IMG/VR virus record: IMGVR_UViG_2879731240_000003
Reading direction: 5' to 3' (one strand)
Length of the DNA: 29,012 nucleotides
Origin: a virus
Taxonomy: Duplodnaviria; Heunggongvirae; Uroviricota; Caudoviricetes
The notes beneath the pieces were generated by a model that was not told the DNA's origin, ran no database searches, and saw only the letters and a list, made by a program, of their open reading frames with translations. The translations under genes were made by a program, and so were the position numbers. Shown piece after piece: positions 7,528 through 28,164 of this stretch; the stretch's first letter is position 1; every line of letters begins with the position of its first letter.

Positions 7528-7665
7528 ATGGTACCCGCGCTTCGGGAACTGATGCAGGCGAAGCATCGCGCACAGAAAGCAGTAGATGAGCTGGTGGACT
7601 GTGTGGCAGAGCTGGAAACCAGAGTCGGAAAGTTTGAAAAGCTGGTGCAGGAGGTGCTGCGCTGA
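7528..7665 (+). CDS. Small nin-region ORF (45 aa from the first ATG); possibly 5'-truncated by the IS600-like insertion
   Basis: MVPALRELMQAKHRAQKAVDELVDCVAELETRVGKFEKLVQEVLR; stop overlaps the rusA start (TGATG); the reading frame is open back into the IS end. Confidence 0.3.
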   Translation: MVPALRELMQAKHRAQKAVDELVDCVAELETRVGKFEKLVQEVLR

Positions 7666-8024
7666 TGCGCCATGAGTTTATTTTACCTTATCCGCCGACG
7701 GTGAATACTTACTGGCGACGTCGTGGCAGCACATATTTTGTATCAAAAGCCGGTGAGCGTTATCGCCGGGATGTGGCGCTTATTGTCCGTCAGCAGCGAC
7801 TGAAATTAAGCCTGTCCGGAAGACTGGCGATAAAGATTATTGCAGAGCCACCGGATAAGCGGCGTCGTGACCTGGACAATATCCTGAAAGCACCACTGGA
7901 TGCACTGACACATGCGGGGTTGCTTATCGACGACGAGCAGTTTGATGAAACCAATATTGTGCGCGGACTGCCTGTTCCTGGTGGTCGGTTGGGGATAAAA
8001 ATCACAGAGCTGGAGTGTGCATGA
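7665..8024 (+). CDS. rusA: Holliday junction resolvase RusA (lambdoid nin-region endonuclease)
   Basis: 119 aa; LPYPPTVNTYWRRRG..KRRRDLDNILKAPLDALTHAGLLIDDEQ..GGRLGIKITEL matches the RusA family pattern. Confidence 0.9.
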   Translation: MRHEFILPYPPTVNTYWRRRGSTYFVSKAGERYRRDVALIVRQQRLKLSLSGRLAIKIIAEPPDKRRRDLDNILKAPLDALTHAGLLIDDEQFDETNIVRGLPVPGGRLGIKITELECA

Positions 8025-8710
8025 ATAACCAGTATTTACAGTTTGTTCGTGAGCAGCTCATTATCGCCACCGCTGATTTGAGTGGGGCGACAAAAGGTCA
8101 GCTTGAAGCCTGGCAGGAGAATGCCATGTTCGATACAGGGCGTTACAGGCGTAAAAAAATCCGGTACCGCGATGAGGTGACCGGAAAAATGATAACGCGG
8201 GATAATCCACCAATCCCGGGAAAACAATCACTGGCGAAGGGGGCGTCAATTCCTCTGGTCAGTCAGGTTGCGTTTTCGACATCATCGTGGCGGCGGGCTG
8301 TTCTGTCTCTTGAAGAGCACTATAAAGCCTGGTTGTTGTGGTGTTACAGCGGAAGTATTTGCTGGGAGTATCAGATCACCATAACCCACTGGGCGTGGGA
8401 AGAGTTTAAGGCTCATTCTGGCACTAGGAAAATTGCAGAGAAAACACAGGAACGCCTGAAAAAATTAATCTGGCTGGCGGCGCAGGCGGTAAAAGCAGAA
8501 CTTTTTGGTGGGGAAGGTTATGAATATCAGGAGCTGGCATTACTGGCGGGAGTAACAACCAAAAACTGGTCCAAAACATTTACTGGTCACTGGGTTGTAA
8601 TGAAACACATTTTTCACCGACTGGATAGTGAGGCTTTATTGTTTGTGATGAGAACACGTTCAGAACAAAAAGCGGCATTTTCAAAGCAAAGTATTGCAAA
8701 AGTAGATTAA
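8021..8710 (+). CDS. Hypothetical protein in the position of the late-gene antiterminator Q (assignment positional only)
   Basis: 229 aa from ATG 8021 (overlaps rusA stop, ATGA); sits between rusA and a terminator-like hairpin plus tRNA cluster, as Q does in lambdoid phages. I do not recognise the sequence itself. Confidence 0.35.
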   Translation: MNNQYLQFVREQLIIATADLSGATKGQLEAWQENAMFDTGRYRRKKIRYRDEVTGKMITRDNPPIPGKQSLAKGASIPLVSQVAFSTSSWRRAVLSLEEHYKAWLLWCYSGSICWEYQITITHWAWEEFKAHSGTRKIAEKTQERLKKLIWLAAQAVKAELFGGEGYEYQELALLAGVTTKNWSKTFTGHWVVMKHIFHRLDSEALLFVMRTRSEQKAAFSKQSIAKVD

Positions 8711-8776
8711 AAGGCATATATCTCATGCAAATCTGATACTTTGCCGATTTTGTACGCGATGGTAAAGTAAGCAAAA

Positions 8777-8798
8777 CCCGCCGCCGAGCGGTTTTTTT
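8777..8798 (+). terminator. Candidate intrinsic terminator downstream of the Q-position gene (tR'-like position)
   Basis: Short GC hairpin CCGCCGCCGAGCGG followed by T7 (..GCGGTTTTTTTAT). The stem is short, so this is tentative. Confidence 0.4.
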
Positions 8799-8886
8799 AT
8801 GCCTGAAAAATGGCACAGGACGTTAAACGTGCTGGTGGTCAGATGAGTTTGCAGATGTGATGACATATGGTTATTATTCTGCCTCC

Positions 8887-24246: not shown

Positions 24247-25308
24247 ATGGCAGTAAAGATTTCAGGTGTACTGAAAGATGGGGCGGGTAAACCTGTCGTA
24301 AATTGTGCGATTGAACTGCGGGCCAGAAGAACCAGTCCGACCGTTGTGGCACACGTTGTTGCCACTTGCGTGACGGACAATAACGGTGCTTATGTGATTG
24401 AGGCTGAGCCGGGGTATTACGAGGTTGCGCTTCACTGTAACGGCTGGCAGCCAACCCGTGTCGGGGATATTGATGTGGCACCGACTGATGCACCGGGGAC
24501 ACTGAACGCGTTTCTGAATGCACCAAAGGATGGTGATTTACGTCCGGAGGTGATGAAGCGCTTTGAGGAAATGGTGGCGCAGGCGCAGCAGAGTGCCGGG
24601 GCTGCAGCCGGAAACGCACAGCAGACGGCGCAGGATGTGGCGGCAGCCGCAACGGCCCGTGATGATGCACAACGTTTTGCGGAGAAAGCCCGACAGGATG
24701 CAACCGTCACAGCTGAGGACAGAAAGGCCACTGCGGAAGATGTGACAAGCACAGGAGCAAATGCAGCCGCAGCCGGACAGAGCGCACAGGATGCCGCAGG
24801 TTATGCCCGCGCAGCAGAACAGGCCAAAAATGACATTGATGCTGCGCTGACCGGCACTCTGAAAATGGCTAACCATCTGTCAGAAATCGCAGCAGCAGGC
24901 GAAAAGGCACAACAGAAGTCCCGGGATAATCTGGGGCTGAAAAGTGCGGCCACGATGGAAGCACAGAGCGACATTTACGACCGGACAAAAGGCCGTCTGG
25001 CGATACCCGGCGCATTCGGCTTTGGGTGTGCTTTTCTGCCTGAAGATGTTATCCGTTTTGACACTAAGAGTGATTTCCTGGCCTGGGTAAGGAATGCGCT
25101 GCCAGGTGAATATTCCGTTGCTGGCCCCTACGGCATCATCATACCCGACACACGGTTTGAAGGGGTGCTCAGCATCCGGTGGACTGATGCACGCCCTGAG
25201 ACAACAGAACCGCGGTACAGAGCCAAATCCCTTACTTTTTACGGCATTAACGGCCCCATTTATCACACCCGCTACCGCTACTGGCCCATATCCAGACTGA
25301 CTGGGTGA
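24247..25308 (+). CDS. Side tail fibre (Stf)-like protein, short form (353 aa) with divergent C-terminal domain
   Basis: N-terminus MAVKISGVLKDGAGKPV.NC.IEL.ARR matches the lambda Stf N-terminal anchor; Ala-rich central region; unrelated C-terminus. Confidence 0.7.
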   Translation: MAVKISGVLKDGAGKPVVNCAIELRARRTSPTVVAHVVATCVTDNNGAYVIEAEPGYYEVALHCNGWQPTRVGDIDVAPTDAPGTLNAFLNAPKDGDLRPEVMKRFEEMVAQAQQSAGAAAGNAQQTAQDVAAAATARDDAQRFAEKARQDATVTAEDRKATAEDVTSTGANAAAAGQSAQDAAGYARAAEQAKNDIDAALTGTLKMANHLSEIAAAGEKAQQKSRDNLGLKSAATMEAQSDIYDRTKGRLAIPGAFGFGCAFLPEDVIRFDTKSDFLAWVRNALPGEYSVAGPYGIIIPDTRFEGVLSIRWTDARPETTEPRYRAKSLTFYGINGPIYHTRYRYWPISRLTG

Positions 25309-25658
25309 AAATAAATATAACCACAGAAGATATTATTTACAGAATCGTGGCGAGCTCTGTCCGCAACAGATGGGGAGACCCTGACATTGGCGGGCTGATT
25401 ATTGCTGCGTACCAGGGAGAAGCTGACGGTGATAAAGTCATCAGACTTGTCAGGGGGCAGTCATACAGAGGCTCACGACTGGGACCGGTGGGGATTTCAG
25501 TGCCCGGTACTCCCACCGGAACGTATATAGCATCCCCACAATTTTTCATTACGGGATGTTCAGAGCATTCATTACCAGGGTCATATTGCGCCCTGTCCGG
25601 GGTGCCGGATGCTCATGTCTCTGGCGCAATGCCCGGGCTTTTTATTCGCACATCGTGA
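25305..25658 (+). CDS. Hypothetical protein (117 aa), GTG start overlapping the stf-like stop (GTGA)
   Basis: ORF-track ORF; no family recognised; position suggests a fibre-associated or chaperone function. Confidence 0.35.
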   Translation: MKINITTEDIIYRIVASSVRNRWGDPDIGGLIIAAYQGEADGDKVIRLVRGQSYRGSRLGPVGISVPGTPTGTYIASPQFFITGCSEHSLPGSYCALSGVPDAHVSGAMPGLFIRTS

Positions 25659-25668
25659 GGAATGCACC

Positions 25669-26233
25669 GTGGAAATTAAAAAAATCATTAATCCCCGTTA
25701 TACCGAAAGTGGCGCAGTAGACTGTGACGTTTTTTTTTGACGACAGGGACCAGGCAGTTCCCTACACAGCCACCGCTGATGATGTTGCACCGACGGGTCA
25801 GCAAATCTGGCAGGAACTGCAAAGTGGCAAATGGGGTGAGATAGCCCCATTCACTGTGACACCAGAAATGCTGGAAGCGGCCAGAGAGGCCAGACGTCAG
25901 GAAATTGAAGCATGGCGCACAGAACAGGAGGCGAAGCCGTTCACGTTTGAATGGAACGGCCGCACGTGGAACGCTGACGCCTCGTCAGTGGCCCGCCTGT
26001 CCCCGGTGGTCATGCTGGCAAAATCTGTCGCGGCACAAACACATATGGTGTGGAGTGATGCGGATAATCAGCAGGTGAAACTGTCGATGCCGGAACTGGA
26101 AGAACTGGCGGCAGCAATGGTGCAGGCGCAGGTCGATCGCAACGATGAGATTTATCGCCGTCAGCGGGAGATGAAAGAGGAGCTGAGCAGTCTGGATGAT
26201 TTGGCTTCAATTCGGGCGTTTGACGTTAAGTAA
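25669..26233 (+). pseudogene. Tail fibre assembly/chaperone-like gene (DUF4376-like C-terminus) interrupted by a frameshift at a T9 tract
   Basis: GTG 25669 behind GAGGAA opens a 23-codon frame that stops at 25738..25740; the 169-aa body (25724..26233) is in the +1 frame. C-terminal pattern W.DADN..V.LS..EL..LA.AM resembles DUF4376 tail-fibre chaperones (from memory). Confidence 0.5.
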
Positions 26234-26348
26234 TGAATAAGCCGCAACTGGCGGAATCACAGAAGACCGCTTTGCTTACCGAAGCGGAGTCTGTCATCCG
26301 GCAGCCGGGGCGTGCTGTCAGGCTGAACAGGGAAACGGATGAATCAGG

Positions 26349-26376
26349 GGAGGCCCGGGGGCGGGCCTCCGTTTTT
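26349..26376 (+). terminator. Strong intrinsic terminator between the convergent tail-fibre genes and ipaH
   Basis: Perfect 9-bp stem GGAGGCCCG / CGGGCCTCC with GGGG loop followed by GTTTTT. Confidence 0.7.
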
Positions 26377-26412
26377 CCGGAGTCAGTCCGGTCTGTGGTT
26401 TATGCGATGTGA

Positions 26413-28164
26413 TTATGAATGGTGCAGTTGTGAGCCGTTTTCAGGCAATCGCAGGGCCAGTACCTCGTCAGTCAGCTGACGGTAAATCTGCTGTTCAGTC
26501 TCACGCATCACCTGTGCACCGGCTTCCCTCTCCGCATCCGCATCACCGCTCAGACCTGATGCTTTCAGCCGGTCAGCCACCCTCTGAGGGTACTCATTCT
26601 CCAGCATCTCATATTTCTGCTCTTCTGCCTGCGCCCAGCGGTCAGCTTCCGTACGCTTCAGTACAGCATGCCATGGTCCCCAGAGGGAGAACCAGTCCGT
26701 AAATTCATTCTCTTCACGGCTTCTGACCATGGCTTCGGCAGTGCGGAGGTCATTTGCTGTCACTCCCGACACGCCATAGAAACGCATTTCCTTCACGGCA
26801 GTGGAGAGCTGAAGTTTCTCTGCGAGCATGGTCTGGAAGGCCAGGTAGACTTCTATCTCATCCACAAAATGGAGAGTTCTGACTTTATCCCGGGCAATAT
26901 CCTCCAGAATTTCGAGGCGGAACATTTCCCTGCCCAGGGAGAGCAGAGCGCCGGTATCATTATCGAAAAGGCCTTCTGATGCCTGATGGACCAGGAGGGT
27001 TTTCCGGAGATTGTTCCATGTGAGCGCGACACGGTCCTCACAGCTCTCAGTGGCATCAGCAGCAACAGCGAAAGACTGCTGTCGAAGCTCCGCAGAGGCA
27101 CTGAGTTTTTCCAGCCATGCAGCGACCTGTTCACGGAATCCGGAGGTATTGCGTGCAGAGACGGTATCGGAAAGGCGGTCAAGGAACGCGGAAAAGGTGT
27201 TGGCGTGCTCTTCATGTTCAAAAGCATGCCATATCTGTGATACATCAGATTGTTTGTTTTCCGGGAACCATGCTGTCACGGCATCAGCCAGGGGGCGATG
27301 GAGTGTATTCTGTTGTCCGTCACTCATGGAGAAGTAAATCTGCGGGCCGTGGTAGTCCGGCGAAGATGTTAATCTTTGCAGGGATTGCAGAGCATGGGAT
27401 GACAATGGGTTATCACTAATATCTATTGAACATTCATTCCTCAGATTAAGAATGCTTTCCGGGATATGACTTATCTGATTTATGTCAAAATAACCGTTCC
27501 TTAAATTTTCCGGCAGGTATGGAATATCGGTTAACATATTGTCGATTGCCCATATGGAGTGAATGTTGTGAGGTAGAGGGGGGAGTTCACTAAGAAGATT
27601 CCCTATTGCGCTAATCTCTTGTAAAGAAAATGGTAAAGGTGGTAAAACTGCCAGCCCATTACATGATACATCTAATGTTTCCAGTAGTTCTGGTAAAACA
27701 GGAAGAGAACATAATTGATTATTTGAGACATGAAGCTCCTTCAAAGATATGGGGAGTGTGGGTAGTGTGATTAGTTGATTGTGGGACGCATTCAATAATT
27801 TAAGTCCTTGAGGCAAAGCAGGCAGTTCAATAAGTCTGTTATAGCTGACATTAAGTTGTGTAAGGGACGCAGGCAATGGGGAGATTAAGCTTAAATTATT
27901 TTTACTTATATTAATTGATTTAATTCCCGGGGGGATTTCAGGTAATGTTGTCAGGCCTAATTCAGACAAGTCCAGGTTCGTCTCTTGGTTTTGTAGACAT
28001 GATACTAGTCGCTGAAAAGCGATGTCTCGTTGTTCTTCTTGTATGCGGTTATTTTTCCATTCAGTCCAATGGGTTAGATAATTTTCATATGCGCGGCTAG
28101 TGTCGATTGAATAAGTGGAGAACGAATTTGAAATTAATCTGTGATTGTTATTTGTCGGGAGCAT
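26413..28164 (-). CDS. ipaH: IpaH-family type III secreted effector: N-terminal leucine-rich repeats plus C-terminal NEL-type E3 ubiquitin ligase domain
   Basis: 583 aa; N-terminus MLPTNNN..; about nine 20-residue LRRs (L..LP.LP..L..L.VS.N.L); C-terminal domain with the catalytic CEDR motif (..ADATESCEDRVALTWNNLRK..) matching Shigella IpaH proteins from memory. Confidence 0.95.
   Translation of the reverse strand: MLPTNNNHRLISNSFSTYSIDTSRAYENYLTHWTEWKNNRIQEEQRDIAFQRLVSCLQNQETNLDLSELGLTTLPEIPPGIKSINISKNNLSLISPLPASLTQLNVSYNRLIELPALPQGLKLLNASHNQLITLPTLPISLKELHVSNNQLCSLPVLPELLETLDVSCNGLAVLPPLPFSLQEISAIGNLLSELPPLPHNIHSIWAIDNMLTDIPYLPENLRNGYFDINQISHIPESILNLRNECSIDISDNPLSSHALQSLQRLTSSPDYHGPQIYFSMSDGQQNTLHRPLADAVTAWFPENKQSDVSQIWHAFEHEEHANTFSAFLDRLSDTVSARNTSGFREQVAAWLEKLSASAELRQQSFAVAADATESCEDRVALTWNNLRKTLLVHQASEGLFDNDTGALLSLGREMFRLEILEDIARDKVRTLHFVDEIEVYLAFQTMLAEKLQLSTAVKEMRFYGVSGVTANDLRTAEAMVRSREENEFTDWFSLWGPWHAVLKRTEADRWAQAEEQKYEMLENEYPQRVADRLKASGLSGDADAEREAGAQVMRETEQQIYRQLTDEVLALRLPENGSQLHHS
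27414..27996 (-). repeat. Tandem degenerate roughly 60-bp repeats encoding the IpaH leucine-rich repeats
   Basis: Periodic LRR units in the translation and a visibly AT-rich periodic DNA segment. Confidence 0.6.

Follow-up and report, generated by a model that had tools for sequence, protein, structure and literature searches.

A probable one-T frameshift allele in a tail-fibre chaperone-like gene of a defective ipaH prophage of Shigella flexneri

A gene in two frames around a run of nine T

The stretch of viral DNA analysed in this work (the window: 29,012 nucleotides, IMG/VR record IMGVR_UViG_2879731240_000003) carries a tail-fibre chaperone-like gene of the DUF4376 family, the reading frame of which is broken at a run of nine T (T9; 25730..25738, plus strand). 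Its first part is a short open reading frame (ORF) on the plus strand (25669..25740), made of a GTG and 22 further codons and closed by a TGA at 25738-25740; its 23 sense codons translate as VEIKKIINPRYTESGAVDCDVFF and correspond to residues 1-23 of the DUF4376 protein. A Shine-Dalgarno-like GAGGAA (25657..25662, plus strand) precedes the GTG with a spacer of 6 nt, and is unchanged in all close homologues. The T9 spans both the stop of this stub and the start of the gene body, which lies in the +1 frame relative to it as an ORF of 169 codons (25724-26233), and of which the part downstream of the run (25739..26233, plus strand; 164 codons and a stop) is intact. Both frames had been described in the original prediction, made from the letters alone, and the sequence bears them out, the length of the +1 frame being counted here at 169 codons. 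The prediction had also held that the loss of a single T would fuse the two into a protein of about 190 aa; the fusion stands, and its size comes to 187 aa, with the run in its in-frame state of eight T (T8) read as GTT TTT TTT, i.e., V-F-F.

No other A/T homopolymer of at least nine nucleotides exists in the window. Even so, at least one T9 or A9 run was found in 20 of 100 dinucleotide shuffles of the window, so that the run by itself is statistically unremarkable, and the case rests on the comparison of homologues given below.

The body of the gene scores 63.8 bits with the Pfam family DUF4376 (PF14301; E = 2.4e-17), for which the gathering cut-off is 25, and the protein repaired by removal of one T matches phrog_1141 ('tail fiber protein') over residues 1-187 of a profile of 194 positions (E = 1.7e-88). 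It lies directly downstream of a tail-fibre gene with a phage_tail_N domain, in the same order as L56 and L57 of phiP27, and DUF4376 proteins in this position have been experimentally shown to be fibre chaperones in the Alteromonas phages V22 and A5 and in a Campylobacter prophage (PMC7289586, PMC10579305, PMC7882524). Family, position and these precedents support the description of the product as tail-fibre-chaperone-like, as had been predicted. Of a Caudo_TAP or TfaMu-type assembly protein the product shows neither the PF02413 match nor the TfaMu-like fold.

A search of 1.8 billion representatives retrieved full-length relatives with about 23-30 residues ahead of the tract position, in the same ORF, and an N-terminal segment of the size of the stub is, judging by these relatives, a feature of the family. 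The N-terminus of the stub is kept even in distant homologues (MEIKKIGNARYLESGAIDCEVLF). In an AlphaFold2 model of a homologue of the same length (P0027, 78% identical; mean predicted local distance difference test, pLDDT, 96.8), beta-strands occupy residues 3-11, 17-23 and 30-34 and are followed by helix, hairpin and helix elements. The frameshift site falls inside strand 2 of the N-terminal sheet, which makes the 23-aa stub and the body fragments of one domain; neither of them is, according to the model, a separate functional unit. No relatives in the PDB were found by sequence or profile search, and Foldseek gave no match against the PDB at E <= 0.001.

In RefSeq, the intact gene is annotated (by PGAP, the Prokaryotic Genome Annotation Pipeline) from an ATG equivalent to position 25609, as a protein of 207 aa overlapping the end of the tail-fibre gene (window 25609-25668). 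The N-termini of the family (MEIKKI..., MMQIKEI...) and the Shine-Dalgarno-like GAGGAA support the GTG at 25669, and thereby the 187-aa form, as the probable true start. A shorter functional product, translated from GTG 25724 or ATG 25868 within the body, is unlikely; both codons lack a Shine-Dalgarno sequence, and in the AlphaFold2 model two strands of the N-terminal sheet are supplied by residues 1-23. The T run was also considered as part of an intrinsic terminator, a consensus scan having flagged a hairpin at 25713-25726 followed by the run; this reading was rejected, as the hairpin folds no better than shuffled sequences (z = -0.10) and the run is coding in all homologues. An Rfam scan of the whole window returned only four tRNAs and a group II intron, with no match at the T9 site.

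The length of the T run among homologues

Aligned base for base with its close homologues, the window has nine T where they have eight, with no further indel nearby, which confirms that the split is due to a single extra T. In four genomes of enteroinvasive Escherichia coli the region is 94-99% identical to the window, the run is T8 and the DUF4376 gene is annotated as uninterrupted. In a pattern scan of the GTDB representative genomes, two genomes together had 13 copies, of which 12 are T8 (187-aa ORF) and one, in a different paralogue, is T9. A further search of IMG/VR was seeded on the protein body alone, hence blind to the tract, and yielded 59 copies of the Shigella clade, 44 of which have T8. 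Considering also the A7 run within codons 4-6 of the gene (25678-25684), 41 of the 59 are fully intact (A7/T8), the other states being A7/T7 (seven copies), A7/T9 (two), A7/T10 (one), A6/T8 (three), A6/T7 (three), A6/T6 (one) and A5/T7 (one). The same search brought up 20 distant E. coli prophage homologues of the phiP27 type, and all of these read V-L-F at the site, with T3-T5, in a single ORF. Over all copies (n=108) the counts are 68 T8, 28 T9, ten T7, one T6 and one T10. Judged from these alignments, T8 is the in-frame norm of this young clade and T9 a derived allele with one T added.

This suggests that the split is most probably an ordinary lesion, i.e., a derived +1T frameshift allele (T8 to T9) of the DUF4376 tail-fibre chaperone-like gene, and not a gene built around slippage. 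The intact gene is one 187-aa ORF starting at GTG 25669, in which the extra T ends translation after 23 codons; it is the final tail gene in a lambdoid prophage of Shigella flexneri that is defective and carries ipaH.

The original prediction had left the choice between a fresh pseudogene and a slippage-dependent gene, in which expression is designed through transcriptional slippage on the T9, as in mxiE, and the two-ORF layout is the functional state. The latter possibility has its attractions: the T9 sits at the ORF junction; runs of nine A/T do support transcriptional slippage in Shigella and E. coli, as the prediction had stated and the literature agrees (PMC1088944, PMC6925163); the body ORF is intact in all 28 T9 copies; and the removal of one U would give exactly the family protein. 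However, the out-of-frame layout is not conserved, T8 being the majority state in close copies and the run being absent from distant homologues, and T7 and T10 variants exist as well. In addition, mxiE inserts one U, whereas the T9 site would need the loss of one U or the gain of two, and the gene serves a virion that the prophage cannot build (see below). The comparison of run lengths, which the prediction itself had proposed as a check, therefore counts against slippage dependence, since it returned uninterrupted single ORFs, with T8 in close homologues and a non-slippery T3-T5 in the 20 distant ones. A programmed recoding is thus very improbable, and only the weaker idea of a leaky T9 survives from it, whilst the pseudogene alternative holds, T9 being derived from an in-frame T8.

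It could also be argued that the true state of the window is T8 and that the extra T is no more than a homopolymer miscall, given that errors of this kind are present in related public assemblies: one of them (L026) contains several singleton indels, and A7 and T8 runs are shortened together in old drafts. The same T9, however, is found in CP044158.1 (L024), which is 100% identical to the window across 9,289 nt, T9 included, with no other singleton indels between the two; in further S. flexneri assemblies (L019, L022, L023) with the ipaH-dinI-pncA::IS110-aspS locus of the window, several complete genomes having T9 at this same locus; and, in other contexts, in short-contig drafts (L020, L021, L027, L028) that are most likely short-read assemblies. 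Moreover, the exact products of T9 recur, the 169-aa protein on 44 contigs and a 41-aa stub on 119, next to the intact forms of the same allele (187/207-aa proteins) on 993, 254 and 156, hence on more than 1,000 contigs. An error in the window is, accordingly, very improbable.

The A7 run of the same gene was seen as A6 or A5 in eight IMG/VR draft loci, often alongside a shortened T run. The likely cause is that older assemblies under-call homopolymers, and tract censuses in general should be read with this in mind.

A defective prophage and the exchange between its copies

The gene order in the window is that of a lambdoid prophage from which a central part is missing. RusA, the antiterminator Q and four tRNAs (7665-9193; the tRNA genes at 8887-9193) are followed by an IS110-family transposase gene (9896..11092, minus strand), and then directly by FI, Z, U, V and the tape-measure gene through J, the insertion sequence (IS) element standing between Q/tRNAs and FI in place of the lysis, terminase, portal and capsid genes, none of which is present in the window. 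The prophage is therefore defective and unable to make virions. Upstream of the DUF4376 gene, the tail-fibre gene (24247..25658, plus strand) is itself split, at 25308/25305, through loss of one unit of a GACT repeat: the window has (GACT)2 (25295..25302, plus strand) where in-frame homologues have (GACT)3 or GACTGACTGGCT. The resulting fragments have 353 and 117 aa, and re-insertion of GACT restores a single ORF of 471 aa. With head and lysis genes missing and the tail-fibre gene frameshifted, the fibre chaperone has neither fibre nor virion to serve, and there is no evident selection to keep it. Because the gene belongs to a prophage unable to form particles, it has no evident bearing on Shigella virulence either.

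Downstream, a hairpin terminator rich in GC (26349..26370; nine pairs, eight of them GC, with a T tail) separates the DUF4376 gene from the convergent ipaH, the cargo gene of the prophage (26413..28164, minus strand; 583 aa, with LRR_TTSS and NEL E3 ligase domains). Between the two lies a 59-aa ORF (26233-26412) that spans the terminator hairpin, belongs to phrog_7784 (E = 1.5e-44), is called in many related loci and bears a faint likeness to tail-fibre-assembly fragments. On the ipaH strand, a C10 run (28382-28391) occurs 5 nt upstream of GTATCGTTTTTTTACAT (28360-28376, minus strand, upstream of ipaH), which fits the positions of the MxiE box, i.e., G1, G6, T7-13, A14, C15 and A16 (PMC3299695). 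This run is C10 in 12 of the loci fetched and C9 in five, and is thus a second polymorphic homopolymer, beside a putative MxiE box. Elsewhere in the window, an A8 run (16744-16751) is in frame within the intact tape-measure gene (14591-17662), where it is potentially prone to slippage and hypermutable. The prophage also contains an IS3-family element and a group II intron (832-2445; reverse transcriptase/maturase ORF at 832-2355, Rfam Intron_gpII domain at 2359-2445), which is adjoined by a truncated rve-type transposase fragment (2508-2924) and appears to lie inside an IS element.

Tract length at the locus of the window is polymorphic in S. flexneri, with about ten T8 versus eight T9 among loci retrieved by their identical IpaH, a count that includes 'similar places' whose tract was not individually read. 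Amongst assemblies of this locus, L029, L030, L032, L033, L034 and L037 have T8, and L031, L035, L036 and L038 have T9. The T9 is not confined to one place in the genome: it is found beside five ipaH paralogues in all, those other than that of the window encoding proteins of 587 aa (at the bio operon), 608 aa (at a resolvase), 547 aa (at a methyltransferase) and 571 aa (at pphA), and CP034931.1 has T8 at the locus of the window and T9 at another. The haplotypes of flanking single-nucleotide polymorphisms (SNPs) are mosaic, and tract state does not follow them. Dense SNP blocks at 25960-26062 and 26283-26370 are common to subsets of orthologous loci and match other paralogues (GRIWNAGPDSLGRL-type sequence), and such shared blocks indicate gene conversion among ipaH prophage remnants. 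The haplotype pattern would require that slippage recurred at a hot spot, that the five to seven copies per genome converted one another, or both.

The derived allele is most easily accounted for as follows. It would most likely have arisen by replication slippage, one T being added to T8 while selection was weak or absent; the allele, which is common in S. flexneri at this locus, would then have been inherited and spread by conversion. That other paralogous remnants have this lesion too would be explained by the proneness of the T8 run to mutation, as a hot spot, and by gene conversion between the paralogues.

Several observations do not sit easily with a plain lesion and weigh against it. 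The body ORF is otherwise intact in all 28 T9 copies, and pN/pS (the ratio of non-synonymous to synonymous polymorphism) in the clade is about 0.35-0.42, without the neutrality expected for a long-dead gene, so the gene family may be still constrained, or the lesions very recent. T8 is found on three or more haplotype backgrounds at one locus, and so is T9, a pattern that a reversible switch would yield as well. Finally, some of the differences in tract length between public assemblies are probably technical, and allele frequencies are approximate, since some of these assemblies have homopolymer errors. As a test of relaxed selection, pN/pS was compared between rare variants (0.42) and common ones (0.35); this is not decisive, because the rare set includes imported conversion tracts.

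The reversible switch deserves consideration in its own right. The T8/T9 run, perhaps together with (GACT)n, could act as a contingency locus, switching the tail-fibre module of ipaH prophages on and off by phase variation. This would fit the length polymorphism, seen on several haplotypes of one orthologous locus and altogether at five paralogous loci, the range from T6 to T10, the absence of secondary lesions from T9 copies, and the second simple-sequence frameshift in the adjacent tail-fibre gene, in which 38 copies are shifted, nine have (GACT)3 and 46 the GGCT variant, every combination with T8 and T9 being seen. However, in enterobacteria proficient in mismatch repair, 8-9 T make a short tract for switching at a high rate. 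Conversion between the five to seven paralogues of each genome, visible in the swapped blocks, accounts for the incongruence with no need of new switching, part of the variation probably stems from sequencing noise, and a tail-fibre chaperone has no evident role for the bacterium when its prophage is headless. We regard a contingency locus as improbable, and lean towards the ordinary lesion.

For practice, the case suggests that a slippery run at a Shigella ORF junction can be resolved by a census of tract lengths across paralogues and strains, provided the census takes into account that prophage copies convert one another and that public assemblies contain homopolymer errors.

Residual expression and comparison with known systems

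The frameshift allele is probably leaky. In one route, RNA polymerase slippage on the U9 would produce transcripts short of one U and hence the wild-type protein. In the other, a ribosome reading GUU UUU UUU UGA C in the 0 frame would meet a 'shifty stop' created by the extra T, UUU UGA C (25735..25741, plus strand; read from the sequence, following the motif logic of PMC12421855), where tRNA-Phe could re-pair perfectly after a +1 shift and GAC enter the A site. Both routes would yield V-F-F-D, i.e., the exact wild-type sequence. Such leakiness would be a by-product of the mutation and not a programmed mechanism, and nothing indicates selection for rescue. As the extra T makes both a U9 site and a prfB-like shifty stop, the T9 allele could nonetheless be a convenient natural substrate to separate transcriptional from ribosomal rescue.

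That any residual full-length protein comes mainly from the +1 ribosomal shift, and not from polymerase slippage, seems to us doubtful. The perfect +1 re-pairing of tRNA-Phe and the identity of the product with the T8 protein speak for it, as does the weak stop context UGA-C, which is that of prfB, TTTTTGA being natural in the prfB of 21 genomes (PMC12421855). However, the Shine-Dalgarno-like stimulator of prfB is absent, with GACGTT in its position, and altering any element of the prfB site lowers shifting (PMC12421855), so that shifting here is probably inefficient; the site shows no detectable local RNA structure (z = -0.1), and slippage on U9 is documented in S. flexneri.

A bolder reading would take the T8/T9 run and (GACT)n together as an on/off or dimmer switch of a tail-fibre module retained beside every ipaH. 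Here T9 would be a low state, tunable via the two stacked recoding routes, and translation of the DUF4376 gene might modulate convergent transcription into ipaH. We consider this quite improbable.

With regard to the function of the gene, whose product is named 'tail fiber protein' in databases, close counterparts are V22 gp27, A5 gp9 and the gene that follows the H-fibre gene of Campylobacter CJIE1, which likewise have PF14301 in the C-terminal two thirds of about 190 aa and are encoded immediately 3' of a tail-fibre gene. The relationship is one of domain-level sequence only, and chaperone activity in lambdoid/phiP27-type phages would follow from it by analogy; the requirement for folding or activity of the cognate fibre is shown for V22 gp27 and the CJIE1 gene only (PMC7289586, PMC10579305, PMC7882524).

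As for the interrupted frame, the homopolymeric-tract contingency loci of Campylobacter, Haemophilus and Neisseria share with the present case a coding homopolymer of length varying among isolates and toggling an ORF on and off, although part of the variation seen here may be sequencing noise. They differ from it in that the tract here is short, its host proficient in mismatch repair, and its gene a phage assembly factor and not a surface or restriction function. The site of prfB (release factor 2) has in common with 25735-25741 the arrangement YUU-UGA-C, with a slippery P-site codon, an in-frame UGA and a 3' C, and its TTTTTGA variant uses tRNA-Phe, just as UUU-UGA-C would here. Unlike prfB, the present site has no Shine-Dalgarno-like stimulator 3 nt upstream of the slippery codon (GACGTT, not an AGGGGG-like sequence), no conservation of the interrupted frame and no autoregulatory logic, and its motif looks like an accident of a T added before GAC.

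S. flexneri mxiE (and the spa33/spa13-type genes; Penno et al. 2005/2006) is from the same organism and has, like the T9 gene, a run of nine T or A at the junction of two overlapping frames, which stuttering of the polymerase can fuse. In mxiE, however, the two-ORF arrangement is fixed and functional and one U is inserted to achieve the fusion. The split gene of the window is instead a derived and polymorphic allele against a T8 norm, and neither the two-ORF layout nor the run length is conserved over the 108 copies and the 20 distant homologues.

The T9 site fits the class of the 'pseudo pseudogenes' described by Baranov, Hammer, Zhou, Gesteland & Atkins (2005, Genome Biol 6:R25; PMC1088944), although the DUF4376 gene is missing from their supplementary tables for S. 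flexneri NC_004337. In these, as here, a single-nucleotide frameshift extends an A/T run of eight to a slippage-prone nine, the homologues are in one ORF, the lesion is present in some isolates only, and slippage would restore the normal protein. The differences are that restoration here would proceed by the loss of one U (or the gain of two), and that the host is a defective prophage, in which restoration may be inconsequential. The T9 allele of the DUF4376 gene adds one well-documented example to this class.
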